Assembly: GCA_020054475.1 (NCBI GenBank)
Contig: JAHWGJ010000004.1
Coordinates: 5,384-69,383, forward strand
DNA: 64,000 bases
DNA from: Thermoplasmata archaeon
GTDB lineage: Archaea; Thermoplasmatota; E2; DHVEG-1
Direction of reading: 5' to 3'
Position 1 is the first letter of the stretch; each line of letters opens with the position of its first letter. Below are positions 4,179-53,633 of the stretch, one piece after another. The notes under the pieces are model-generated. The model was given only the letters and a program-made list of their open reading frames with translations. It did not search any database and was not told the origin of the DNA. Made by a program: the position numbers and the translations under genes.

Positions 4179-5060
4179 CTAGTTATATACATTTTCAATA
4201 AATATCTTCCCATAAGGAAACTTTTTTTGATAAACCGTAATTTTATTATCATATGCTAAAAAAAGTACAGATATCAGAGTTTTTATAAATTCCTCTCGAT
4301 TTTTTGAATCGCAAAGATCAATTAATGATATAGTTTTATTATTAAATGTATTTATTTTTTTCCAAATTGCTTCTACGTCTTCTTCTAGATTATCTTCATG
4401 AGCTGATCCGATCATTCTTTTTCTTGATTTAATTTTAAGTCTTTCTCTTTCTTCTTGTCTTTGTTGTTCAATAAGTTGATATTCTTCAGATTCTTTTCTT
4501 GCTTGATTAAATGCACCTAATAATTCAATTAATGTTACCTTCCTTTTAGAATCTCTTCTAACAGGTTTGTATAATGGGGATTCAGGCATTTTCATAATTA
4601 GGTTAGTATATGAGTAATCTTGATCATTTTCAAGCCACATTTCAGATGGCAAATCATTCCAATCGAAAATTTCTTCACTTTCTTGGTTTTCTTCAACACT
4701 AACTACTAGATTATCACTTTGTAATTTCAATATTTTCCATGCCATTAGTATTATTCGACCGGCTGTTATTAAATCAATTTTTTCCTCCTTCGCTCTTGCA
4801 ATATACATCGTAGAGAAATTTACTAAATCAATATCCCATGGATCTAAATGTTGCCTCATAACAAGCTCAAAGGCTATAGCTATAGACCTCTCAAATGGAT
4901 TTTCAATTGAGATATGTTCTCCTTCATTTGTTTTTTGTAACATTTCAACATAATAATTAATCATTGCAGCATCATCATTTTCATCAATAAGCGATTTATG
5001 AAATAATAAATGATTAATTACATCATTATCTATTTTTAGCTGTTCCATTCTTCTAAACAC
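4179..5060 (-). CDS. scpA: Segregation and condensation protein A (kleisin) ScpA
   Basis: Immediately downstream of and overlapping smc on the same strand. Size and the LDPWDIDLV...LITAGRIILMAWKILKL pattern are typical of ScpA. Confidence 0.65.
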   Translation of the reverse strand: MFRRMEQLKIDNDVINHLLFHKSLIDENDDAAMINYYVEMLQKTNEGEHISIENPFERSIAIAFELVMRQHLDPWDIDLVNFSTMYIARAKEEKIDLITAGRIILMAWKILKLQSDNLVVSVEENQESEEIFDWNDLPSEMWLENDQDYSYTNLIMKMPESPLYKPVRRDSKRKVTLIELLGAFNQARKESEEYQLIEQQRQEERERLKIKSRKRMIGSAHEDNLEEDVEAIWKKINTFNNKTISLIDLCDSKNREEFIKTLISVLFLAYDNKITVYQKKFPYGKIFIENVYN

Positions 5061-8000
5061 CTGAATTTAATTCACCTTTTGGACCTACAGAGGAGGGGTC
5101 GATATTTCCAATCATATCAGAAATACCTGTATCTCTCATTGTAACACCATATACATGGTTTGCTTCTTTTAATGCAATTTTACGCAATGAAACCATAATA
5201 AATTGGGAATCTTGTGAATTTATTTTGATTGTTTTTGATACTGTTTCTGCGTTTACTCCATCAAGAAACATATCTACTTCATCAAGAACATAAAATGGGC
5301 TTGGGTCATAATTTTGAATTGCAAAAATAAAAGCTAAAGAGGCTATACTTTTTTCACCACCAGAAAGAGCTGATAATAATAAAACTTTTTTTCCTCTTGG
5401 TTTTGCTTTTATTGTGAGACCATTTTCAAATATTTTTTCCTGATCCTCAAGTTGTAATTCTCCTTCTCCACCTTCAGAAAGTTGTGAATAAATTTTTTTA
5501 AAGTTATTATTGATCTCAATAAACACTTCAAAAAATCTATCTGTTTTTTTATTTGTAATTTCTTTACAGAGTTTCACAAGGTTTTTCTTCTGATCTTTTA
5601 AATGTTTTACATCTTCATCTAACTTATTTTTCCTATCCGTTTGATGTTCATATTCTTCAAGAGCACGCATATTTACTGGTTCCAATTCTCTCATTGTTTC
5701 TTCGATTATTTTTATTGAATCTTTTAATGATTCAACATTTGGAAGGTTTTTGTCTTTAATTTCAATATTATAAAGTTTCATTTCCTCTTCAATTTCGTTA
5801 ATTGCGATTTCCAATGTTGGTAATCGATATTTCGCTCTTGAAATTAGATCATAATATGATTCGACACGCGTATTTGCTTTATCAAGTTCATTTTCAATTG
5901 AGATTGTCTCCTTATAAAACTCATCTCTTTTTGAAGTATATTTTTTAATTTTATCTGTTATTTGATTTTCAACATTCATTAGAGCTTTTATTTCATCTCT
6001 ATATTTTGCTCTTGATTGTTTATATTCTTCAATTGATTTGTTATGTTCCCCCATCTGTTTTTCTTTTAATTTTATATTTGAATTAATCTCATTTTTTCTA
6101 TCATTTAAAATTTCAATTTTCTTTGAAATAGTGTCTAAATTTGAGGAGATATTTAGTATTAATTCATTTAATTGAGATACGTCTTTCTCTAGATTTCTAG
6201 CCTTTACAGCTTGTTCTTTTTTTGTACCAGTTAGTAATATCTTACCTTTTTCTTCTTTTAATGAATCAATTTCCTCTAATTTTTTATTGATTTCCCGTAT
6301 CTTGTTAATTAACTCTTGTCTTCTTGATTCATTTTTTTCTTTTTCAATATTTTTTAATTCTAATTCCTTTTTTATTAAATCTAATTTATTTTGAAAATCT
6401 TTTCTACGAATATCAATATCTTTTATTTGTATTTCTTTATCAGCGGTTGTTCTAATTTCTCCTAATTGATTTTCAAGATCGATAATTTCTTTTTTAATGA
6501 TAATAATTTTATCAGATAATACTTCATGATTTGTTAGGGATTTTTGAAGTTCGTTAGTTATTTTTTCCAACTTAGTGCGATCTAAATCTGTAAAACTTAG
6601 TGAACTTTTTTGTATACTTCCACCAATCATTGCTCCACTGGATTCAATTAAAGATCCTTTCAAATCAACTAATCTAACTCCACCCATTAGACGTCTAGCA
6701 TCATCCAACGAATTTATAACAACTGTATCACCAAAAACAAACCAAAATGCGTCATAATATTTTTTGTCAAATTTTATTAGATCAAGTGCAAAACCATGTG
6801 AGCTTTTATCCTTTATGGTCATCAGAGCTTTTCCCCGTGGTTTACTTGTTATCATTTTATTTAATGGAATAAAAGTTGCTCTTCCTAATTTTTCTTTTTG
6901 CAAATATTTTATTGCTTTAGCAGCTTTTTCGTCTGTATCAACAACAATTGATTGCATTCTTGCACCTGCTGCAGTTGCAACAGCAATTCTATATTTATCA
7001 TCGACATTTGCAAGTTCAGCTATGGTTCCATGAATTCCTTCTAAAGTACCTTGATTACGTGCCTTTAATATTTCACTTACGGCTCTATTGTATTTATTCT
7101 GAACATTTTGTAACGCATCAAATTCTGCTTGTAATTTAGATTGTTCTCTCTGTAATTTTCTTATTAAATTATCAAATTCATTTAACTGTTGTGTATATTC
7201 AGATTCAGTTTTTTTCTTTTCAAAAAGTTTTTTCTCGATATCTCTTTGTTTTGAATTTTTTTTCTGATAATCATTCTTAAATTCATTAGCTTGCCAATCA
7301 ATATCTTTTAACTCAAATTCATATGTTGATTTTGTTTCCTGAATTTCAGCTATTTGTAATTCAAGAGCTTCAATTTTATCTGTTAATCTATTTCTTTTAA
7401 GTTTAATTTCATGAAGTTCACTCGTTTTTTCATTATAATCCTCCCTCATTTTAGTTAATTCATGAGATAATTCCATGGATTTGTCATCATGACTGGCTAT
7501 GGTTTCCTTTAAATCATTCAGTTCTTTTTCTTTTTTTTCTAATTCATTTTTATTTTCAATTAATTTATTGTTTAATTCCTCATTTTCAATATTATATTTA
7601 TTAATCTCATTTTGAATATCTTCTAAAATTGTTTTTTGCTCTTTTTCATTATTTTGAATATCAATAATTTCATCGCTAGAATAATTTAATCTCTCTTCAA
7701 TTTTAATTTCTTCACTTCTTAATGAATCAATTTGATCTTTTATTTCTCTTACCTCATCCCCACCTACTTCTCCGATCTTATTTTCTATCTCTGTGAGATC
7801 ATTTTGCGATTTATTATATTTAATTTTTAGATCTTTGACTTTTTTATCAAGCTCACCTTGCTCCTTTTCATATGATCCAATTTGTTTGTAAATTTCACTT
7901 ATTTGTGATTCAATTTCAATTTTTTTCTTTAATGCAATCTTTGCTTTTGTTTCGTAAAGATTATCTTTTAATTCTTTGTATCGATAGGCTTCATCTCTAT

Positions 8001-8682
8001 CATTTTTTAATTGTTTAATTTGATTGTTTATTTCCTTAAGTATTATCGAAATTCTATCTAAATTTGAATCAACATCAGTTTCTTCTCTTTCAGCTTTTTT
8101 TATATCATTATCAAAATTACTTATTCCCGCAATATCATCAATTATTCTTCTTCTATCAACTCCACCCATTTCTGTTAAATTAGTGACATCTCCCTGTTTG
8201 ACGATATTGTAACCCTCACCAGAGATTCTGGCATGTACCAACACATTTTGAAAATCAGAAAAAGAACAGGAACGACCATTAATGTAAAAATAACTGTAAT
8301 AATTTTCAGTATTATTTTTAAGAGGAGCACGCTTAATCATTCTAGTTAGAATTACCTCATTTGTGTCAACATTCATTTTTCTATTTTTATTATCAAAAAC
8401 AAGAGAAACTTTACAATATTTAGATGGATTTTTATGTTTTTTCCCACCATTAAATATAAGATCTGTTAATTTACCTGCACGCATAACTTTTGAACTTTTT
8501 GGACCTAAAACAAATAGAATTGCATCTGCAATATTACTCTTACCCGATCCATTTGGACCTGTAATTGCGGTATATCCTGGAAAAAACGGTACTGAAAGTT
8601 TTTTCCCAAAAGATTTAAAATTTTCCATTTGAACTTCTTTTAGGTACAGTTTTATCCCATCCCAAATTATTTTTTTAGGCAA
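5053..8682 (-). CDS. smc: Chromosome segregation ATPase SMC
   Basis: 1209 aa. N-terminal Walker A FTAITGPNGSGKSN. Long coiled-coil arms and hinge. C-terminal LSGGEKS signature and Walker B VLDEVD. Confidence 0.9.
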   Translation of the reverse strand: MPKKIIWDGIKLYLKEVQMENFKSFGKKLSVPFFPGYTAITGPNGSGKSNIADAILFVLGPKSSKVMRAGKLTDLIFNGGKKHKNPSKYCKVSLVFDNKNRKMNVDTNEVILTRMIKRAPLKNNTENYYSYFYINGRSCSFSDFQNVLVHARISGEGYNIVKQGDVTNLTEMGGVDRRRIIDDIAGISNFDNDIKKAEREETDVDSNLDRISIILKEINNQIKQLKNDRDEAYRYKELKDNLYETKAKIALKKKIEIESQISEIYKQIGSYEKEQGELDKKVKDLKIKYNKSQNDLTEIENKIGEVGGDEVREIKDQIDSLRSEEIKIEERLNYSSDEIIDIQNNEKEQKTILEDIQNEINKYNIENEELNNKLIENKNELEKKEKELNDLKETIASHDDKSMELSHELTKMREDYNEKTSELHEIKLKRNRLTDKIEALELQIAEIQETKSTYEFELKDIDWQANEFKNDYQKKNSKQRDIEKKLFEKKKTESEYTQQLNEFDNLIRKLQREQSKLQAEFDALQNVQNKYNRAVSEILKARNQGTLEGIHGTIAELANVDDKYRIAVATAAGARMQSIVVDTDEKAAKAIKYLQKEKLGRATFIPLNKMITSKPRGKALMTIKDKSSHGFALDLIKFDKKYYDAFWFVFGDTVVINSLDDARRLMGGVRLVDLKGSLIESSGAMIGGSIQKSSLSFTDLDRTKLEKITNELQKSLTNHEVLSDKIIIIKKEIIDLENQLGEIRTTADKEIQIKDIDIRRKDFQNKLDLIKKELELKNIEKEKNESRRQELINKIREINKKLEEIDSLKEEKGKILLTGTKKEQAVKARNLEKDVSQLNELILNISSNLDTISKKIEILNDRKNEINSNIKLKEKQMGEHNKSIEEYKQSRAKYRDEIKALMNVENQITDKIKKYTSKRDEFYKETISIENELDKANTRVESYYDLISRAKYRLPTLEIAINEIEEEMKLYNIEIKDKNLPNVESLKDSIKIIEETMRELEPVNMRALEEYEHQTDRKNKLDEDVKHLKDQKKNLVKLCKEITNKKTDRFFEVFIEINNNFKKIYSQLSEGGEGELQLEDQEKIFENGLTIKAKPRGKKVLLLSALSGGEKSIASLAFIFAIQNYDPSPFYVLDEVDMFLDGVNAETVSKTIKINSQDSQFIMVSLRKIALKEANHVYGVTMRDTGISDMIGNIDPSSVGPKGELNSGV

Positions 8683-15373: not shown

Positions 15374-17656
15374 GTGCAAACAAAATATATAAATTATAAA
15401 AAAATAAAACTCAAAAAAATTGAATTTAGAGAATATCAAGTAAATATTGCTGAAACCTCTTTTAAAAAAAATACTTTAATAGTTTTACCTACGGGTCTAG
15501 GAAAAACTGTTATTGCTCTAATATTGATATCAAAAATCATTCAAATATGTAAAAAAGAAGAAAAAATTTTATTCTTAGCACCTACAAAACCACTAGTATT
15601 GCAACACGCAAAATTTCTTAAAGAATCTCTCAAAATTGACTGTGAATCGATTTCAATATTTACCGGTGAAATATCACCTGAAGAACGGAATAAATTATGG
15701 ACTCGAAGTAAAATAATAATATCTACACCTCAAGTTGTAGAAAATGATCTTTTATCAAAAAAAATTGATATAAAAGACGTTTCTTTTATTATATTCGATG
15801 AAGCACATCATGCTGTTGGAAAATATTCATACGTCTTTATTTCTGAAATGTATAAAAAACATAGGGCGGATGGATATATTTTAGGTATGACTGCTTCACC
15901 AGGGAACGAAATTCCAAAAATTAAGGAAATATGTAAAAATCTTAATATAAAAAATATAGAGTTACGTACGAAATATGATTCTGATGTTAAGCCATATATC
16001 CATAATTTAGAAGTAATATGGAAAGAAGTTTTTCTTCCAAAGGAATTTTCGTATACAATTCAATTACTTAGAAAATCATTATCTGATCGTTTAAAATTTT
16101 TAAAAGAATTTAAATTTATTGATTCTGCATCAGTTGCAAGAATAAATCGGACAAAACTTCTTGATGCCCAAATTAAAATTCAAAAGGAAATAAAATCAAG
16201 AGTAAAAATTCCAAAAATATTGTTTCAAGCGGCATCAATCCAAAGCGAAGCATTGAAATTATATTTTGCTATTGAATTATTGCAAACTCAAGGAGTAAAT
16301 GCTTTAAATAATTATTTTCAGAGAATGAATAAGGAAGTTCTCACTAAAAATAGCACCAAATCTTCTAAATCAATTATGTCTGATCAAAATATAAGTGAAG
16401 CTGTTGCATATGTTAAATCATTAGATATTGAACACCCTAAATTACAAGAGATAATAAATATAGTTGAAAAACAGTTATCCAAAGCACCTAATTCAAAAAT
16501 TATAATTTTTACTCATTATAGAGATACATCGTTAAAGGTATATGATATTTTAAAAAATATTGATAATTATAAACCAGTTCGATTTATTGGGCAAGCTGGA
16601 AAAGATAAAGATAAAGGCTTAACTCAGAAGCAACAAGCTGATATTATTTCAAAATTTAAAAATGGAGAATTCAATATTTTAATAGCAACGTCAGTAGCAG
16701 AAGAAGGACTTGATATCCCATCAACAGAATTAGTCGTATTTTTTGAACCAATACCCTCGGAGATTCGTAATATTCAGAGAAGAGGTAGAACCGCAAGGAA
16801 AATGTCAGGAAAAGTTATTATTCTAATAACAAAAGGAACACCTGATGAAGGATATTATTGGGCGTCAAAAAGAAGAGAAAAACTTATGAGAACAGAGCTT
16901 GAACTTTTAAGATCAAAAATTGATAATAAAACACACACTGATTTTTTTAATTATGATAATATAGATAATATCAATAATCAATCAACTTTGAAAGATTATG
17001 AAAAAAATAATCAAGAAATTAAAATAATAATAGATCATAGAGAATATCGATCAAGAGTAGTTAGAAACCTTATGGAATTAGGTATATCTATTGAATCTCA
17101 ACAGTTAGCTGTAGGTGATTATATATTATCATCTAGAATCGGAGTAGAAAGAAAAAATGTAGATGATTTTTTAAATTCACTTATTAATGGTAAATTATTT
17201 TTACAAATATCAAAATTAAGAGATGCATATTCAAGACCAATGTTAATTATAGAGGGGGAAGGTCTTCTTACAAAAAGAAATATTAAACATAATGCAATTT
17301 TTGGTAGTTTAGTTTCAATAATGATTGATTATGGAATTCCAATTTTTACAACTAAGGATGATATAGAGACAGCGAATATTTTATCATTAGCAGCAAAAAG
17401 AGAACAGAAAAAAGATAAAAAATCTGTATCAATAAGAGGCGAAAAAACCTCGATGTCAATTCAAGAACAACAGCAATTTATTGTTGAAGGATTACCAAAT
17501 GTATCTTCAATTCTTGCAAAACGATTACTATCAAAATTTGGATCAATTAAGTCGATAATTAATGCAACAGAAAATGAACTTCAAGACGTAAATGGTGTAG
17601 GAAAAAATATTGCATTAAAAATTATTGAAATACTTAATTCTGAATTTGATGAATGA
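15374..17656 (+). CDS. hef: Hef-type helicase/nuclease (SF2 helicase + XPF-family nuclease + HhH2)
   Basis: GTG start. Helicase motif I PTGLGKT, motif II FDEAHH, motif VI QRRGRTAR. C-terminal ERKNVDDF nuclease block and a C-terminal HhH region. Confidence 0.85.
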   Translation: MQTKYINYKKIKLKKIEFREYQVNIAETSFKKNTLIVLPTGLGKTVIALILISKIIQICKKEEKILFLAPTKPLVLQHAKFLKESLKIDCESISIFTGEISPEERNKLWTRSKIIISTPQVVENDLLSKKIDIKDVSFIIFDEAHHAVGKYSYVFISEMYKKHRADGYILGMTASPGNEIPKIKEICKNLNIKNIELRTKYDSDVKPYIHNLEVIWKEVFLPKEFSYTIQLLRKSLSDRLKFLKEFKFIDSASVARINRTKLLDAQIKIQKEIKSRVKIPKILFQAASIQSEALKLYFAIELLQTQGVNALNNYFQRMNKEVLTKNSTKSSKSIMSDQNISEAVAYVKSLDIEHPKLQEIINIVEKQLSKAPNSKIIIFTHYRDTSLKVYDILKNIDNYKPVRFIGQAGKDKDKGLTQKQQADIISKFKNGEFNILIATSVAEEGLDIPSTELVVFFEPIPSEIRNIQRRGRTARKMSGKVIILITKGTPDEGYYWASKRREKLMRTELELLRSKIDNKTHTDFFNYDNIDNINNQSTLKDYEKNNQEIKIIIDHREYRSRVVRNLMELGISIESQQLAVGDYILSSRIGVERKNVDDFLNSLINGKLFLQISKLRDAYSRPMLIIEGEGLLTKRNIKHNAIFGSLVSIMIDYGIPIFTTKDDIETANILSLAAKREQKKDKKSVSIRGEKTSMSIQEQQQFIVEGLPNVSSILAKRLLSKFGSIKSIINATENELQDVNGVGKNIALKIIEILNSEFDE

Positions 17657-19598: not shown

Positions 19599-20549
19599 AT
19601 GGGGAAAGACGATAATGATAAGATTGATAAATTACCGGGCGTTGGACCTGCAACTGCAGAAAAATTAAGGGACGCCGGTTATACTGACATACTGAGCATA
19701 GCAGTGGCATCTCCAAAAGAGTTATCAGATGCAGCAGAATTAGGCGAATCTTCAGGTGCAAAAATAATTCAAGGAGCAAGAAAACAAGCTGATGTTGGTA
19801 AATTCGAAACAGGTACAACTCTACTAGAGAAGAGAGCAAAAATAGGAAGAATCACATCAGGATCTAAATCATTTGATGAATTATTAGGTGGTGGTTTTGA
19901 AACTCAATCTATTATTGAACTTTTTGGAGAATTTGGATCAGCGAAAACGCAAATTGCGCATCAATTGTGTGTTGCAGTTCAACTTCCAACAGATCTAGGG
20001 GGTTTAAATAAACAAGCATTTTTTATTGATACTGAAAATACTTTTAGACCTGAACGTATTCAACAAATGGCTGAGGCATTGGATTTAGATCCAGATAATG
20101 TTCTACAAAATATTCATGTTGCACGTGCTTATAATTCAAGTCATCAGATGCTTTTGGTAGAAAAGGTAAAAGAATTATCAAAGGAAATACCCGGAGGATT
20201 ACTTGTTGTTGATTCATTAACTGCTCATTTTCGTGCAGAATATATAGGTAGAGGTGCTTTAGCTGACAGACAACAGAAACTCAATAAACATATGCATGAT
20301 CTTCTAAGATGGAGTGATTTAAATAATGGCGTTGTTTGTGTGACTAATCAAGTTTCATCAAAACCAGATGCATTTTTTGGAGATCCAACTAGACCCATAG
20401 GCGGTCATATAGTAGGTCATACTGCAACTTTTAGGATATATCTTAGAAAAAGTAAAGGACCAAAAAGAATAGCAAGACTAATTGATTCTCCTCATCTGCC
20501 AGAGGGGGAAGCAGTTTTTAATGTAAGTGAAAAAGGGATTACAGATTAA
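19599..20549 (+). CDS. radA: DNA repair and recombination protein RadA
   Basis: N-terminal HhH ([12 protein letters not shown]). Walker [10 protein letters not shown], Walker B LLVVDS. Archaeal RadA length. Confidence 0.9.
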
Positions 20550-46680: not shown

Positions 46681-46789
46681 TGAATTTCAATCTATTAAAG
46701 AAATCCAAATACATTAAATCTACTATTGATGTTAAAAATTCGAATATCAAAAAGTTTTAATCATTTTAAATAATAACCTAAGTGAAACA

Positions 46790-48124
46790 ATGGAAGATGA
46801 TCTAAATATATTGGGGGTTATACCTTCAGATAGAAAAAAATTAGAAAACATGGGAATTACAAAAATTCCACAAATAGCAATGATGTCTGTTAATTCTCTT
46901 GGGATGGGAAATAGTAAAGGGAACATGCTCATACAAAGAGCTAGAAATATAATTGCAAATGATAATATCGCGGATATTGATATTATAGATGATGATCATA
47001 TTACTGTTAAAGTAAAAAGAATAGATAGAGCAATTATAAAATCAGTATTAAACGCATTAGATATTTATTCCGCTAAATGGGGAAATGCTGCATTAAAAAC
47101 TGAAGGGAATATCTTAAAAATTTCAAGAAATTCTCAAGCCTTTGATAAAATTATATCAAAAGCAAAAACATTATCAGAAATTATTGAAATTAAAAAAATT
47201 GAAGAAAGAGAAAAAATTGGAATATATTTACCAGATGAAGAACTAATTGAATTTGCAAAAAAAAGAGGTTTTAAAGGTTTTTGGAAAAACGTTTTTCAAG
47301 AAATTCATGGTAATGACATAATGAAAAAGGTAATTTCATCAAGCATGTTCTCGACTTTTAGGGATCCAATTCACTCATTAATAATAGGCGAGCCAGGTAG
47401 CAGCAAAACAATGGCAAAGGAAATAATAAGTGAACAATTTGATGATATAACTAATATTGGTGCAAACACTACTAGATCTGGTTTAGTCTGTAACTTAGGA
47501 ACTGGCGATTTAGGGGCCTTATCACACTCAAATAATAAATTAGTATTAGTTGATGAATTTGATAAAATTCCAGAAGAAGATATTGAATATTGCTATGAAT
47601 TATTATCTAATGGGAAGTGTAGTGTTCATTCTGCTAAAATTCATCAAAATATTGAAAGTGAATTTATTATGATAGCTTTTGCAAATCCAAAATCAAAAGT
47701 ATTCCGTAAAAACGCAATTTTAGATATAGGGTTATCGCCTTTATTAGTTAGTAGATGCGCATTAATTGTTAGAGTAAAAAATATATCAAAAAGCGACAGA
47801 CTAAACTTATTTGAAAAAAAATTTTATGGTGCTGGAGAAATTGAAGAAAAACATGAATATTATAATCAATGGATGCGATTATCTAGAACGTATAATCCAG
47901 AAATAATAGCATCTGAAAAAATAGTAAAAAAATATATAAATAATATGAGTGAAATTGTTGAAAAATATTATTCAACAAACCTCCGAAGAGATCTAAGAAT
48001 GGCGGACTATATAAGAAGAATACCATTATCAATTGCTCGTTCATCTTTTTCATCTGTAAATAATGATATAATTGAAGAAGCAGGAAATATTATTGAAGAT
48101 TCAATTAATACATGGAACGAATAA
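46790..48124 (+). CDS. Mini-MCM: MCM-type AAA+ ATPase core with an N-terminal helix-hairpin-helix region. Lacks the MCM N-terminal zinc/OB domains.
   Basis: Walker A IIGEPGSSKT, Walker B LVDEFDKI, sensor-1 IAFANPKSK, Arg-finger-like LLVSRCALIV, and a lid R-rich helix RRDLRMADYIRRIPLSIARS. N-terminus LGVIPSDRKKLENMGITKIPQIAMMS is HhH-like. Confidence 0.6.
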   Translation: MEDDLNILGVIPSDRKKLENMGITKIPQIAMMSVNSLGMGNSKGNMLIQRARNIIANDNIADIDIIDDDHITVKVKRIDRAIIKSVLNALDIYSAKWGNAALKTEGNILKISRNSQAFDKIISKAKTLSEIIEIKKIEEREKIGIYLPDEELIEFAKKRGFKGFWKNVFQEIHGNDIMKKVISSSMFSTFRDPIHSLIIGEPGSSKTMAKEIISEQFDDITNIGANTTRSGLVCNLGTGDLGALSHSNNKLVLVDEFDKIPEEDIEYCYELLSNGKCSVHSAKIHQNIESEFIMIAFANPKSKVFRKNAILDIGLSPLLVSRCALIVRVKNISKSDRLNLFEKKFYGAGEIEEKHEYYNQWMRLSRTYNPEIIASEKIVKKYINNMSEIVEKYYSTNLRRDLRMADYIRRIPLSIARSSFSSVNNDIIEEAGNIIEDSINTWNE

Positions 48125-48324
48125 AAATAATACTAATTTATCTTGTTAAATAAGTTAATTAATGGTGTGATAAATTATAAATATAACCTATTGAATATTA
48201 TATATTGTAACAGCGGGGGGTAATAAATAGAAGCAATTATTGTGAAATAAAATGAATTTTTTATTATTTATGCTCCTATTTTATTATTTGTATTATTTCC
48301 ATATTACATACCTCCGTTTAAGAC

Positions 48325-48356
48325 GGAAGTGGGGAAAATTAATTTTTCCCACTCCT
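48325..48356. other. Imperfect ~15-bp hairpin GGAAGTGGGGAAAATT / AATTTTTCCCACTCC
   Basis: Seen in sequence about 200 nt downstream of the mini-MCM stop. Confidence 0.3.
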
Positions 48357-48649
48357 TTCTAAATATTCGCATATAAAAAAAAAATGAATAAATCTAATAT
48401 CAAAGATAATAAACCAACAATCAAATAAGTAATATCTATAAACTATCCTTCTAACTACAAAAATATAAAAATCAATTTCTTGAAAACATAACTTAAAAAA
48501 TATAATTGGGGAGATAAAAAATAATTTCAATATTTTGGGAGGTAAACATGAAAAAATTTTTCCTCTTATACTTTGCTTAGAATTCTGATTACATAATAAC
48601 TCAATAAAATTACTTCTCACAATTTAATTTGAATAAAAAATCTGAGAAT

Positions 48650-49700
48650 TATAAATAAATGATGAATCAAAAAATTAAACTATCTTCCTATAACCATTTT
48701 TCCTAAGATTCCTCTGTCTTTCATGTAATTCTTGATATCTTCTATCTTTATGTCTTAAAAAATTATTCAACAAATTAAAACCCCCTAATATAATAATACA
48801 ACCTTAAACCTAAAAACTACCTAATAGATTCTCATAATAACTCTTTATAACATTGTAACGAGCTAATTCCAACTGTTTTTTCAATAAACCGTTTTTCAAC
48901 ATTATAATATATAAGAGCCTCATACTATAACTAATTTACGTAAATTGTCGTAATATATATACGTTTATTAACGTAATTTTACAATAATGAAAAAAAAATA
49001 GAATCAGGAGAGAGAAAAACCTTCCCTCCAAAAACTACCTTTTTTACCTCCGAAAAAACTAAATAAAACAAAAAACTAACAGAAAAATCTACTAAATAAT
49101 TCTCATACTATAGTAATATCACTGTAGCCGTTAGCCGTCTTAATTTCAACTGTTTTTTTGATAATCTTCCATGTCTACGCATAAAATAACATATGCTGCA
49201 CCTAGTATAACTAATTGCCGATATAAAATTCGATATATGACGAATTTTAATAAATATTCTTTTTAATACTAATTATTTGACAATAAAATACAACAATAAA
49301 AATTTATCAAAATCAGAAATATATTTCTTAAAATTCTCATAAACATAACGCAACAACAACTAATTAGCTAAATTAACCGTTTCATACTACTCTTAAATAT
49401 CAATATTTTAAATAAATCTATCATAATAATCATTCATTACAACATTTATATAATAATCTAAAGCTACCTTATTACGCCTTTTAAAATTGCCTTCTATCTT
49501 ATCATAATAAAAAATTCTAAAATTTTTTCGAATTAAACAAGGAATGGATTCAAGTGAACTATTATCTAAAAACCTTCAAAAACCTCAACCTAATTCATTA
49601 TTTCAACCATTTCTATTATTTTGAAATAAATAACAAAATATTTATTCCAATCAAATATTAAAGATAAGAATATATAAAACTTACAAACTCAATAAAATAT
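48650..49700. repeat. G-depleted (+ strand) non-coding block with at least two degenerate ~170-bp direct repeat units (about 48800-48965 and 49085-49260) and a possible third partial unit near 49330
   Basis: Shared strings include ttctcata-taa, ttccaactgtttttt / tttcaactgttttttt, and actataactaatttacg / agtataactaattgccg. No ORF larger than the 48339..48620 artefact. Confidence 0.45.
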
Positions 49701-49732
49701 TGTGAGTCTAAAACTATAATGTTGGTGAAATA

Positions 49733-49924
49733 GTGAGAGATGGTGCAAATTACATTAAACAATTTGAATCTGAGGAAATTAAAAAAATTATTAATCTTAT
49801 ATATGATAGTAAACCAGAAAAAATTGAATTCAGTGATTCAATAAAACAAAAACACTTGGAAGTAATTAATTATGTAGATTCACTTGAAAAACCAAAGATT
49901 AGTTTTTGGAAGAAAAAAAGATAA
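49733..49924 (+). CDS. Small hypothetical protein
   Basis: ORF only. Confidence 0.2.
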   Translation: MRDGANYIKQFESEEIKKIINLIYDSKPEKIEFSDSIKQKHLEVINYVDSLEKPKISFWKKKR

Positions 49925-50109
49925 TTTCACATTAATTTTAATAATTTATTTTCATTTATAATTATTACAAAGATTTAAATACTCAATTATCAAATACATG
50001 ATTAGAAATCTAAAATTAATTTTGTAAATTAAATACATAATAATTATTTTATTATATACAATAAATCTTCTAAAATATTAGATTATTTATTAAGATTTAG
50101 GAATAAATT

Positions 50110-50457
50110 ATGAAATATGATGAATTATTAAATAAAAAAAAGGAATTAAAAAAAATTATTATTAATTCAAATTTTAACAATAAAAATGAAAAATATTATG
50201 AAGGATTCAAAAAAGGAGTATTAGAATCCGTTAATTTATTTAATTCTACAATTGCTTTTTATAAACAATATAAAGATGACGTTAAATTATTGATGAAGGA
50301 GCAAAATAAACTTTGGCTTAAATGGGTTGACTATTATAATGGTCAAACAAGTATAGATAATTCAAATTATAAAAATCGATACAATAAATGGCTTTTTGAT
50401 AATATTTTTTCAAATATAAAAACAGAAGAAAATGAGGAATTATTAGAATTATTTTAA
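50110..50457 (+). CDS. Small hypothetical protein
   Basis: ORF only. K/N-rich helical. Confidence 0.25.
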   Translation: MKYDELLNKKKELKKIIINSNFNNKNEKYYEGFKKGVLESVNLFNSTIAFYKQYKDDVKLLMKEQNKLWLKWVDYYNGQTSIDNSNYKNRYNKWLFDNIFSNIKTEENEELLELF

Positions 50458-51451: not shown

Positions 51452-52195
51452 TTATTTTTCACCAATTATAATTAATTTTTTAGTTAAATCATCTAAAGGA
51501 AGATCAGTAGTAACAAGAGGGATATCTTCCCTTTCAGCTAATTTAACAGCAAGTTGGTCAACAGCTCCGGGTTTATGATATACTACTATTGTAGGTTTAA
51601 CTGGATGCACCCGAACAGCAATCATGGGACTTCGTCCATATCGTATGCCCGTAAATATTAGCGCTCTTTCAGGGGACCAACCATAGAGATTTGCATAATC
51701 AATTGGGGTAATATTTTCAATTATTTTAATACTATCAACAAGAGTAAAACCCTTTACTTTTTTCTTGAAGCCAATTTTTCCAGAAGTTAAAATATTCCCA
51801 TTTATATTATTAATAAAATTTTCTACTGTAACTGCATATGGATATTCCATAATTTCAATAATTCCATCATGTGTCGTAACCATTGAATCATATTGATGTA
51901 TTATTTTTCCTCCAAGGTTTTCATCGATTTTAATAAACCCTTCGATTATTTTTTTAACAGTTTGAATTCCCGGAGATTTTCTTCTACCTGATTCATAGTC
52001 ACTTATTACGCTAGGTGATAAATTTAAATAAGAAGCAAGCTCGGTTTGACTTATTCCAAAAATATTCCTCCATTTTCTAATAGTTTTTCCGGGTTTAGGG
52101 CTAAGAGTTATTTCGCCAGCAATTTTTTCTGATAAAATATCTTTTACATCCATCTTATTTCTCCATAGGTTTAAATTTATATCCATAATGTTCAA
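51452..52195 (-). CDS. XRE-family HTH transcriptional regulator with a C-terminal uncharacterised domain
   Basis: ISQTELASYLNLSPSVISDYESGRR is an HTH_3-type helix-turn-helix. Divergent from the integrase gene. Confidence 0.5.
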   Translation of the reverse strand: MNIMDINLNLWRNKMDVKDILSEKIAGEITLSPKPGKTIRKWRNIFGISQTELASYLNLSPSVISDYESGRRKSPGIQTVKKIIEGFIKIDENLGGKIIHQYDSMVTTHDGIIEIMEYPYAVTVENFINNINGNILTSGKIGFKKKVKGFTLVDSIKIIENITPIDYANLYGWSPERALIFTGIRYGRSPMIAVRVHPVKPTIVVYHKPGAVDQLAVKLAEREDIPLVTTDLPLDDLTKKLIIIGEK

Positions 52196-52238: not shown

Positions 52239-53633
52239 GTGGTTCATATGGTTACTACTCCTTATGATGTCGATAGATATATCGTCAATATGTTAAATAA
52301 TTTTCGTAATAAATCGCATAAAAAAGATGCTGAAGAATACCTATTTATTAGAGAAAGAATAGACAAAGTAAACAACTATACTAGACGAAATGATGTACAA
52401 GCTCTTTTATCCCTTGATTTTTTCCTAAAAGGTAAATCCTACGAAAAAGCAACACAAGATGATATACTTGCCTTTGAACAATATCTGGAAAAAGAATATG
52501 TAAGTCCTGGTAAAAAAGAAAGATACGAAAAAACAATAAAAGCAGGGAATGAAGCAATAAGACCAAAGGTTGGCCTTGACTCTGGATCAGTAGAACAATA
52601 TGAAGCACATATCAAAAGATTCTATAAATATCTATCAAATAAAAATGAATATAAGAAAGGGAAAAGATTTCAGAAAAATATTCCTTATCCGAATAGTGTT
52701 TCATGGATTTCTGCAAGTTCTCAAAATAGTAAAGAATTTCCAATTGACAAACTATTGAAAGAAGAAGAACTTCTTAAACTCCTAAATATGTGTGATAATA
52801 CAAGGGATAAAGCCATGATCTCTGCTGGATTTTATGATGCAGGATTGAGGATAGGGGAATTAATTTCATTAAATATACGAAGCGTAGGTTTTGATAAATT
52901 AGGTGGATATTTTATTTTGCCAAAAAAGGGAGAAAATCTTAAAACAGGCGTGAGGCGAATTAGATTATTTATTATGCCAAGTTCAACTAAATATCTCAAG
53001 GATTTTATTAATAATCATCCATTCAAAAAATATGAGGATGCACCATTATTTTTCACCCAGAATTATTCAACATTTAATAAGATAATCAATAAAATTAATA
53101 ATAATACTTTTAAAAAGGATGATTTTGAGGAAGTAAGACTATCAAGACCAGGCATTGAAAACAAGATTAAAAAATATTGTAATCTTGCAGGAATCTCAGT
53201 TCTTACCCCGCATCAATTAAGACATAATTCTGCAACTCTTTCTTGTAAAGCAGGATTTAATGAAGCACAAATGAGGTTGCGATATGGATGGAGTAAAACA
53301 TCAAAGATGCCGAGTAGATATACTCATCTTGTATCTGCTGATCTTGATGAAAAAATAAAACAGATTACTGGTTTTAAAGAACCTGATAAACCATTGAAGA
53401 GTAAACTTGAGAGTATAATCTGTTGGAATTGTAATGATGAGAATGTACCGACTAATAAGTTCTGTTCAATGTGTGGGAGCAATCTTAATCCCAAAAAAGA
53501 AGAAATTACTCCAACTGCTGCAGAAACTGGAATTGCATTACAAAAAAGCATGAATCAAGATGAAATGTATCAACTAATGTTTAAGAAATTACAGGATATG
53601 GAAAAAGAACTTAAAAAGCTAAAAAATAAATAA
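52239..53633 (+). CDS. Tyrosine recombinase / phage-type integrase with a C-terminal zinc-ribbon tail
   Basis: Catalytic-box residues: LRIGELISL (Arg), HQLRHNSATL (HxxR), SKMPSRYTHL (Tyr). C-terminal CWNC...CSMCG. Confidence 0.7.
   Translation: MVHMVTTPYDVDRYIVNMLNNFRNKSHKKDAEEYLFIRERIDKVNNYTRRNDVQALLSLDFFLKGKSYEKATQDDILAFEQYLEKEYVSPGKKERYEKTIKAGNEAIRPKVGLDSGSVEQYEAHIKRFYKYLSNKNEYKKGKRFQKNIPYPNSVSWISASSQNSKEFPIDKLLKEEELLKLLNMCDNTRDKAMISAGFYDAGLRIGELISLNIRSVGFDKLGGYFILPKKGENLKTGVRRIRLFIMPSSTKYLKDFINNHPFKKYEDAPLFFTQNYSTFNKIINKINNNTFKKDDFEEVRLSRPGIENKIKKYCNLAGISVLTPHQLRHNSATLSCKAGFNEAQMRLRYGWSKTSKMPSRYTHLVSADLDEKIKQITGFKEPDKPLKSKLESIICWNCNDENVPTNKFCSMCGSNLNPKKEEITPTAAETGIALQKSMNQDEMYQLMFKKLQDMEKELKKLKNK

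Follow-up and report, generated by a model that had tools for sequence, protein, structure and literature searches.

The DNA stretch under study comprises 64,000 nucleotides (nt) of contig JAHWGJ010000004.1 from the Thermoplasmata archaeon assembly GCA_020054475.1 (contig positions 5,384 to 69,383), and this whole stretch is referred to below as the window. On its forward strand, at positions 46790..48124, lies a complete gene for a short MCM-like protein, here called the mini-MCM. The list of open reading frames (ORFs) and a check of the sequence agree on an ATG start, 444 codons and a TAA stop, exactly as had been proposed in the initial annotation. The completeness of the gene is supported by a Pfam MCM match and by its homologues, which are full-length proteins of 443-444 amino acids (aa), and the position of the start codon is supported since the homologues all open with MEDDL or MDDDL. 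Upstream of the gene, a TATA-like box TTTAAATA, read by eye, occupies positions 46765..46772 of the same strand and ends 18 nt before the ATG. We take this sequence to match the archaeal TATA consensus, and it suggests that the gene has a promoter of its own and may be transcribed into a leaderless or short-leader mRNA.

The central part of the protein is an MCM-type AAA+ P-loop domain, which covers residues 157-335 (47258..47794). The Walker A motif GEPGSSKT is located at residues 200-207 (47387..47410) and contains the family-invariant K206, while the Walker B motif VLVDEFDK at residues 252-259 (47543..47566) carries the MCM-type DEFDK sequence, with D255, E256, D258 and K259 invariant. The sensor-1 motif AFANP follows at residues 296-300 (47675..47689) with N299 and P300 invariant, and the arginine finger LVSRCAL at residues 319-325 (47744..47764) with S321 and R322 invariant, the family consensus here being SRF. 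The remainder of the polypeptide is an alpha-helical lid (47795..48121) with an RRDxR motif, in which R400, D401 and R403 are invariant and R403 stands opposite the sensor-2 residue R560 of Sulfolobus solfataricus MCM in a profile alignment; the arginine-rich segment of the lid, TNLRRDLRMADYIRRIPLSIARSS, corresponds to residues 396-419 (47975..48046). The protein terminates at the lid, without a winged helix. Two further elements lie between the catalytic motifs on the same strand: a shortened helix-2 insert, GLVCNLGTGDLGAL (47480..47521), and the presensor-1 (PS1) beta-hairpin region, KCSVHSAKIHQNIESEF (47615..47665), which aligns to the PS1 hairpin of S. solfataricus MCM and contains K283, a residue invariant within the Thermoprofundales clade discussed below. 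The invariance of the catalytic residues K206, D255/E256/D258/K259, N299/P300, S321/R322 and R400/D401/R403, and also of W361 and W442, extends to family members that are only 29-47% identical to the window protein. The MCM hallmarks listed in the initial annotation, namely the Walker A motif, DEFDK, sensor 1, the arginine finger and the R-rich lid, are all confirmed at the level of both residues and nucleotides.

The assignment of the core to the MCM family, rather than to Lon-like or Mg-chelatase-like ATPases, was likewise borne out by comparison with sequence models. The Pfam MCM model PF00493 matches residues 157-335 (E=1.9e-14; 53.7 bits, cutoff 23.3), whereas the Mg-chelatase model reaches only E=1.3e-3 and, like the other AAA models, remains below its cutoff. 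A single-sequence search of the PDB returned MCM proteins only. A profile built from 18 divergent family members spans residues 269-592 of S. solfataricus MCM with E=1.7e-26, and among its best 60 PDB matches there is nothing but MCM2-9 and archaeal MCM proteins. When these 18 members were themselves compared with Pfam, the MCM model matched every one of them, the chelatase model six and the BrxL_ATPase model three, with the MCM model always the stronger. On these results the core does not fall into another AAA+ clade.

The distances between the motifs, measured in 131 family members and 30 canonical MCMs (for which the median is given), point to where the core has been modified. From Walker A to Walker B the family has 49 residues and the canonical proteins 57, which makes the helix-2 insert 8 residues shorter, while from Walker B to sensor 1 both have 44 residues, so that the PS1 hairpin is of full length. 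After the arginine finger the family has 122 residues compared with 212 in canonical MCMs, consistent with the lack of a winged helix. In HMMER alignments to S. solfataricus MCM the shortening appears as two gaps of 4 residues each within the helix-2 insert, accompanied by a 9-residue gap at the external hairpin. The Pfam MCM_lid model was not detected on the mini-MCM although the profile alignment runs through the S. solfataricus lid, and the NCBIfam MCM model NF040949 gives 33 bits against a cutoff of 940. Judged by its residues, the mini-MCM appears to be an active ATPase with trimmed strand-separation elements.

The N-terminal part of the mini-MCM is of a different nature from that of canonical MCMs. 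In a model predicted with AlphaFold2 (AF2), residues 1-142 have a predicted local distance difference test score (pLDDT) of about 85-90 and are laid out as five helices (residues 4-59), a beta-hairpin/helix/beta-hairpin unit (60-113) and a long helix (118-142). The first of these parts contains a helix-hairpin-helix (HhH) domain of the RadA/Rad51 type, (HhH)2, at residues 3-56 (46796..46957), which is identified by both profile and fold comparisons. The family N-terminal profile aligns with the N-terminus of the RadA encoded in the same window with an hhalign probability of 93.5% and E=2.3e-7, and in an hmmsearch of the PDB it matches the N-terminal domain of human RAD51 (1b22) with E=7.9e-6, archaeal RadA with 2-5e-3 and Dmc1 with 0.02, while NusA HhH repeats are matched weakly (E about 0.05). 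Foldseek superimposes residues 1-59 onto the RAD51 and Dmc1 N-domains over 54-59 columns with a root-mean-square deviation (rmsd) of 1.8-2.1 Å and a probability of 0.99-1.0, although the E-values are merely 0.08-0.3, and in a structure search of BFVD the single confident match is a viral RadA with a probability of 0.99. NCBIfam gives a RadA hint below its threshold. A single-sequence BLASTP of the N-terminus against the window RadA found no match and Pfam detects no HhH domain there, so the domain is revealed by family profiles and fold comparison alone. The RadA-like HhH start recognized in the initial annotation is thereby corroborated.

The small alpha/beta domain at residues 60-115 (46967..47134), also modeled with a pLDDT of about 85-90, has no convincing match in the PDB or BFVD and none in Pfam. 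It is followed by the long linker helix of residues 118-142 (47141..47215), defined by the AF2 secondary structure, which connects the N-terminal module to the AAA+ module; all three N-terminal elements are on the forward strand. The absence of the zinc-finger and OB-fold N-domain, also remarked upon initially, is supported in several ways: the Pfam MCM_N, MCM_OB and zinc-finger models do not match the mini-MCM, the first 150 residues of the family compared with a canonical MCM N-domain profile give an hhalign probability of 0.13%, and there is no OB barrel in the AF2 N-terminal model. The family architecture is fixed and consists of the (HhH)2 domain, the small alpha/beta domain, the linker helix and the MCM AAA+ module. 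In some members (P0124, P0130 and L083:2902-4398) a B-box-type zinc finger is inserted in the middle alpha/beta domain, as recognized in P0130 by PF00643 with E=6e-5, and P0121 has an extra N-terminal extension of 180 aa without a Pfam match.

The homologues of the mini-MCM form a distinct family. Among the matches listed in a first search were 120 clusters that are 70-91% identical and almost without exception 443-444 aa long, and an exhaustive search of representatives gave about 22 full-length proteins at the 50%-identity level, 435-456 aa long and 34-49% identical, all with at least 220 bits. The next proteins score at most 84 bits and include other short MCM-like proteins and canonical MCMs of 600-700 aa at about 28% identity; the former are nearer to canonical MCM, with 78-105 bits on PF00493 and a detectable MCM_lid. 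In a collection of 5.8 billion proteins, the profile of divergent members from outside the Thermoprofundales retrieved 361 family clusters at E<=1e-20. A neighbor-joining (NJ) analysis of the AAA+ core recovers the family as monophyletic in 100 of 100 bootstraps, on a long branch. The NJ trees are rough, with Kimura distances, capped saturation and one NaN warning in the monophyly tree, and they are used for the monophyly of the family only and not for branching order. A rough rooted tree of this kind groups the members encoded in the operons described below into one clade and places the window protein within a large clade of Thermoplasmatota members, which are solitary wherever their context was looked at. 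One member with 38% identity comes from contig JBEKVB010000026.1 (L083), which is labelled 'Smithellaceae bacterium' and may be archaeal DNA that was mis-binned or else a rare occurrence in bacteria.

The mini-MCM family is therefore described here as a distinct, monophyletic branch of MCM-family AAA+ proteins, and it is apparently undescribed, as literature searches returned no account of it. The ATPase fold and the HhH domain are each already known, whereas we found no description of their combination or of the separation of the family from all other MCMs, nor of the way it has become fixed, much like a core gene, in a major lineage of the sediment, or of its relationship to a module with ORC-like and MCM-like ATPases and a methyltransferase. 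In IMG the family is labelled 'DNA replicative helicase MCM subunit Mcm2', a name that is probably wrong, while the NCBI label 'hypothetical protein' is uninformative.

The genomic surroundings of the gene are those of an ordinary chromosomal locus. Two of the clusters from the first search lie on the closed 'Thermoplasmatales archaeon' chromosomes CP070798.1 and CP070724.1 (1.92 and 2.32 Mb), both of which have the order HD hydrolase, eIF-1A, RIO1 kinase, KH protein (PNO1-like), mini-MCM and NAD synthase (NadE). A scan of GTDB with one genome per species gave 85 matches, of which 80 were kept, nearly all from metagenome-assembled genomes of the Thermoplasmatota, including SM1-50, M11B2D, UBA202 and UBA33, which we take to be names of the MBG-D/DHVEG-1 group. 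MBG-D and DHVEG-1 have been equated with the Thermoprofundales (PMC9585477). Two types of synteny cover most of the 80 loci. Type A is the arrangement of the closed chromosomes and occurs in about 30 species, with eIF1A, RIO1 and KH immediately upstream and co-directional. Type B is the arrangement of the window and occurs in about 13 species, with a divergent HflX gene upstream and the small genes orf63 (49733 in the window), orf115 (50110) and orf89 (50463) downstream. In type A loci the mini-MCM and NadE genes are 9 nt apart or overlap by 17 nt (L001:10001-12160 and L003:10001-12158); such spacing indicates that they are probably co-transcribed, and we know of no functional reason for this coupling.

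The conservation of the gene is very high. Across 28 type A loci the median identity to the closed-genome copy is 79% for the mini-MCM, compared with 72% for eIF1A, 67% for KH, 63% for NadE and 60% for RIO1, and the mini-MCM ranks first in conservation within the block in 23 of these loci. Pairs of type B loci follow the same pattern, with the mini-MCM proteins 68-78% identical and the HflX proteins 53-65%. In the archaeon of the window, which is of the Thermoprofundales/MBG-D type within the Thermoplasmatota, the gene stands alone on the chromosome, has been inherited vertically and is held under very strong purifying selection. The content of the window also fits a chromosome, with genes for SMC/ScpA, Hef, RadA, peptide ABC transporters and HflX. 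Among these, the genome-maintenance genes ScpA, SMC, Hef and RadA (4179-8628, 15374-17656 and 19599-20549) have no evident link to the mini-MCM; ScpA and SMC were assigned by eye from their N-terminal sequences, and the Hef helicase/ERCC4 nuclease with its HhH2 domain is complete at 760 aa with a GTG start. Neither the 64 kb window nor 84 related loci (about 1 Mb, covering the surroundings of the mini-MCM gene only) contain a canonical MCM gene, and the cluster names of 20 canonical MCM representatives include no Thermoplasmatota label.

Downstream of the mini-MCM the window contains genes of a mobile character. An XRE-type helix-turn-helix (HTH) gene is found 3-4 kb away on the minus strand (51452-52186), and about 4 kb away another gene (52248-53633) encodes a tyrosine integrase of 461 aa that carries a zinc ribbon at its C-terminus; beyond it, small ORFs for membrane proteins continue to about 61200. 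No homologue of either the integrase or the HTH gene was found in any of the 80 related loci, and the block of HflX, mini-MCM, orf63, orf115 and orf89 is shared with relatives that have neither. The integrase/HTH region probably belongs to an integrated element or island peculiar to this strain, which would start beyond about 50.8 kb and leave the mini-MCM outside, and a provirus including the mini-MCM was rejected, as the conserved block occurs without the integrase and HTH genes. No tRNA gene was found in the window, and hence no tRNA integration site is evident near the mini-MCM. Between the mini-MCM stop codon and orf63 there is an AT-rich, ORF-free stretch of about 1.6 kb (48124-49733), which appears to be an insertion or decayed DNA because orf63 in the relatives starts 75-110 nt after the stop. 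A 24 nt sequence occurs twice in the stretch as a direct repeat, at 48864 and 49141 (277 nt apart), and neither an Rfam match nor an origin-like array of repeats was found in it. A replication origin in the ORF-poor 2 kb at 48124-50110 was considered and rejected, since the short two-copy repeats are at chance level, there is no Rfam match and the relatives lack the stretch.

More distant branches of the family occur in other settings. Five loci (L090:713-8380, L093:2238-9865, L094:223-6939, L097:955-7455 and L098:169-7030) show the mini-MCM as the distal member of a closely spaced string of genes read in one direction, in the order small ORF or HTH gene, X, BrxC/BrxD-family ATPase, Y and mini-MCM, usually followed by a methyltransferase. 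These comprise a 'Bathyarchaeota'-type group (three versions, 63-88% identical to each other) together with P0128 and P0131, which are 43-46% identical to the group; the operon relatives are at 40-46% identity. X (340-400 aa), the ATPase and Y (450-500 aa) are homologous across all five loci, with the mini-MCM as the best-conserved subunit (43-72% identity as against 19-66% for Y). The ATPase matches PF10923 with 41.7 bits against a cutoff of 22.2 and PADLOC BrxD with 4e-5, and only about 23 to 26 clusters of this BrxD-like partner were found in the same 5.8-billion-protein collection. In four of the five, the next gene after the mini-MCM codes for an N6/N4 DNA methyltransferase. The residues PD...E...K are invariant in Y, which also resembles Vsr endonuclease very weakly (E=0.58); together these features are no more than a hint that it might be a nuclease. 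One locus has a PD-(D/E)XK gene ahead of the string, and in a second copy of the sole locus lacking the methyltransferase (L095) a serine recombinase is found close by. No PglZ or BrxC was recognized in these operons. The string of X, BrxD-like ATPase, Y, mini-MCM and methyltransferase looks like an undescribed defence system related to bacteriophage exclusion (BREX), pairing an ATPase of the origin recognition complex type (ORC) with one of the MCM type.

Other distant members have still other neighbors. P0126 is encoded on a 32 kb virus-like or episomal contig (L096:1-17347) with all genes on one strand, many small unknown ORFs, a LAGLIDADG endonuclease gene and a Pyr_excise (T4 endonuclease V-like) gene. 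P0326 (L099:3824-7410) adjoins a Bil-like cluster (ThiF/E1 with Prok-E2 and Prok-JAB) and an HTH gene in a defence-island-like setting, and solitary copies among ordinary genes are found in UBA186, on a 'Helarchaeota'-labelled contig and on a 443 kb contig. The PADLOC candidate PDC-M37B, for which no description was found in the literature, matches 17 of 18 family members with a best E of 1.1e-12, but the match is partial and covers the half from Walker B to the lid (model positions 240-373 of 390). PADLOC BrxL matches two of the 18, whereas the window protein itself has no BrxL match at E<=0.01 in PADLOC or at E<=1 in Pfam, and the window locus contains no BrxC, PglX or PglZ gene. The core of BrxL is an MCM-family AAA+ ATPase, with type-4 BrxL consisting of DNA-binding domains at the N-terminus plus that ATPase only, and BrxD is an ORC/Cdc6-type AAA+ protein proposed to act as a helicase loader (PMC10164562, PMC12839542). 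BrxL binds DNA in an ATP-dependent manner, without demonstrated helicase activity (PMC10164562).

Taken together, the observations lead us to favor, with somewhat better than even confidence, the view that the mini-MCM acts in genome maintenance or DNA surveillance as a stand-alone hexameric DNA translocase, with a BREX-like defence motor as its relative, and that it is not the replicative helicase. In such a model the subunits would assemble into a ring, probably a hexamer, where R322 would complete the ATP site of the neighboring subunit in trans and DNA would be threaded through a channel lined by the PS1 hairpins with K283. The ring of (HhH)2 domains could then form a collar that grips duplex DNA independently of sequence and substitutes for the OB/zinc tier. 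Given the trimming of the strand-separating inserts, a translocating or remodeling mode is probable, and the protein would be expected to behave more like a translocase, a remodeler, a branch-migration-type motor or BrxL than like a processive replicative helicase, which it is unlikely to be. In the cell it would most likely serve in genome maintenance (recombination, repair or restart) or in DNA surveillance, and it may have arisen from the MCM-like motor of the rare archaeal BREX-related module or else have been the source of that motor. A bolder version, which we consider possible but doubtful, is that the mini-MCM and the MCM-like motor of that undescribed system are of recent common origin; the system, with X, the BrxD-like ORC-type ATPase, Y as a possible PD-(D/E)XK nuclease, the mini-MCM and the DNA methyltransferase, would mimic the step at which ORC loads MCM, and its motor would have been captured in the Thermoprofundales as a stand-alone, essential core translocase of genome maintenance.

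Several points weigh against this picture. The assignment of a cellular role is a guess, and the neighbors of the gene are translation and ribosome genes, not repair genes. That the protein is not a replicative helicase is concluded from its missing domains and from general knowledge. The AAA+ part of the full-length AF2 model has a pLDDT of about 30-45 with a shallow alignment and was not used, so that ring formation and hairpin geometry are proposed by homology only. The rough NJ tree is unreliable in its branching near the root, and solitary genes may have given rise to the operon or the operon to solitary genes. No BrxD-like partner was found on the closed Thermoprofundales genomes in a search of limited sensitivity, made with a word index and with few matches listed.

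The same evidence can be read in other ways. The mini-MCM could be a stand-alone or dispersed factor of anti-virus or anti-plasmid defence, a BrxL-like motor blocking foreign DNA either by itself or together with unlinked partners. Such a role would suit the relatives that sit at the distal end of the BrxD-like/methyltransferase module or adjoin the Bil-like ThiF/E2/JAB cluster, the PDC-M37B and BrxL matches within the family, and the precedent of BrxL, itself a DNA-binding MCM-family AAA+ protein without demonstrated helicase activity (PMC10164562). The architecture is, moreover, identical throughout the family. Defence genes are, however, typically patchy, island-borne and fast-evolving, whereas the synteny of the mini-MCM with housekeeping genes is fixed in about 80 species and its conservation exceeds that of eIF1A, and this synteny and extreme conservation make a pure defence role less likely; the absence of a BrxL match for the window protein, the partial nature of the PDC-M37B match and the lack of a BrxD-like partner in the limited search of the closed genomes point in the same direction, and on the whole we regard this explanation as unlikely. 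The initial annotation had suggested that the protein serves an integrated plasmid or provirus, either initiating its replication or acting as its helicase, and in favor of this the nearby integrase and HTH genes, the relative P0126 on its virus-like contig and known short MCM-like proteins of mobile elements such as BcMCM (PMC2715239) could be cited. That proposal is not supported for the window gene: the housekeeping context recurs on the two closed chromosomes and in about 80 species, the conserved block is present without the integrase and HTH genes, tblastn searches of 50,697 phage and 72,556 plasmid records gave matches to the AAA+ core only, at 23-29% identity, IMG/VR contained no family member and merely two matches at 27-28%, the window has no tRNA gene, and conservation exceeds that of eIF1A, RIO1, KH, NadE and HflX. 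A role in the replication of a mobile element is essentially excluded, and we hold the proposal to be very improbable; what survives of the mobile flavor is a grain of it at the family level, in the BrxD-like/methyltransferase module, the virus-like contig and the Bil-like cluster.

It might also be asked whether the protein is a replicative MCM, perhaps the sole one of its organism, in which the HhH and alpha/beta N-terminus has replaced the OB/zinc N-domain. Each locus has one copy of the gene, with vertical inheritance and extreme conservation, the ATPase and PS1 elements are all intact, and no canonical MCM gene was seen in the gene neighborhoods surveyed (the window and the roughly 1 Mb of related loci). 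Yet cellular replicative MCMs have an OB/zinc N-tier and a winged helix, which are missing here, the helix-2 insert and the external hairpin are trimmed, the NCBIfam MCM score is far below its cutoff, and family members elsewhere in archaea are accessory, being found in operons and on a virus-like contig. A Cdc45-MCM-GINS (CMG) complex with a canonical MCM is moreover reported as conserved in all archaea (PMC3307487), and altogether a replicative function appears improbable. Scarcely better is the standing of an RNA- or ribosome-related AAA+ remodeler in place of a DNA motor, an idea prompted by the ribosome and translation factors that adjoin the gene in both synteny types (eIF1A, RIO1 and the PNO1/Dim2-like KH protein in type A, HflX in type B) and by the weak NusA HhH matches of the N-terminal profile. 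The best N-terminal matches are nevertheless DNA-binding RAD51/RadA N-domains, the core is of the MCM type, other family contexts involve DNA methyltransferases and an ORC-type ATPase, the synteny may be mere inheritance within one order, and the tightest coupling is to NadE and not to a ribosome factor; we hold this possibility to be improbable as well.

To our knowledge, archaeal MCM-family rings are known almost only as the replicative helicase or as copies on mobile elements. The mini-MCM would represent a third kind, short, provided with a recombinase-type DNA-binding head and chromosomally fixed in an order of very abundant sediment archaea, and since it is constrained more strongly than eIF1A it should have an important, as yet unnamed cellular job. 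The pairing of an ORC-type ATPase, an MCM-type ATPase and a methyltransferase among its module relatives would also make testable, in a simpler archaeal system, the proposal, suggested for BrxL and BrxD, that BREX-like systems load a motor on foreign DNA in a manner resembling replication initiation (PMC10164562, PMC12839542). Should the recent common origin with the BREX-related motor be true, the family would be a clear example of a component exapted between immunity and chromosome biology, in a sediment lineage that is abundant worldwide.

Compared with canonical MCMs (S. solfataricus MCM, PDB 3F9V and 4FDG, and Mcm2-7), homology covers the whole AAA+ module, starting at the N-C linker helix and reaching the lid, and shared features are the Walker A motif, DEFDK, the sensor-1 asparagine, the SRF finger and a PS1 hairpin of equal length, with a lid arginine aligned to that of sensor 2. 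The mini-MCM differs in the lack of the helical, zinc-finger and OB N-domain and of the winged helix, in a helix-2 insert about 8 aa and an external hairpin about 9 aa shorter, in a lid that the MCM_lid model does not detect, in its N-terminus of a RadA-type (HhH)2 and a novel alpha/beta domain, and in the separate long branch of the family, with at most 84 bits to any protein outside it. The (HhH)2 domain resembles that of RadA, Rad51 and Dmc1 over residues 3-56 by profile and fold (rmsd about 1.9 Å), with both hairpins recognizable, but it is fused to an AAA+ motor instead of a RecA core, has a 4-residue deletion before the second hairpin and belongs to a family in which the HhH signature decays in distant members. 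Eukaryotic MCM8/9 and bacterial ComM are MCM-related motors of recombination, not replication, and so provide a precedent for rings of the MCM clade in recombination or branch migration, the class of role favored above for the mini-MCM. MCM8/9 are among the PDB matches of the family profile, although they keep the canonical N-domain, while in ComM a chelatase-like core is joined to an N-terminus of the Lon/ChlI type, and neither is specifically related to the mini-MCM family beyond the common clade.

The mini-MCMs of mobile elements, such as BcMCM of a Bacillus cereus prophage (PMC2715239) and the MCMs of haloarchaeal viruses and plasmids, likewise combine an MCM core with a non-canonical or missing N-terminus, yet their identity to the window protein is 23-29% over the core only, and the window gene is chromosomal and vertically inherited. 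PDC-M37B is similar in matching 17 of 18 members and different in being matched over the Walker B-lid half only, and the candidate is itself uncharacterized. The mini-MCM differs from BrxL in having no Lon-like C-domain, in N-terminal domains that are unlike by the descriptions in the papers (PMC12839542, PMC10164562), in the lack of a BrxL match for the window protein at E<=0.01 and in its setting, as the window gene is in no defence locus and the mini-MCM-related operons contain no recognizable PglZ or BrxC. At the same time BrxL, especially of type 4, shares with the mini-MCM the joining of an N-terminal DNA-binding module to an MCM-family AAA+ ATPase, a few family members weakly match BrxL models, and relatives of the mini-MCM are encoded together with a BrxC/BrxD-family ATPase and a DNA methyltransferase.

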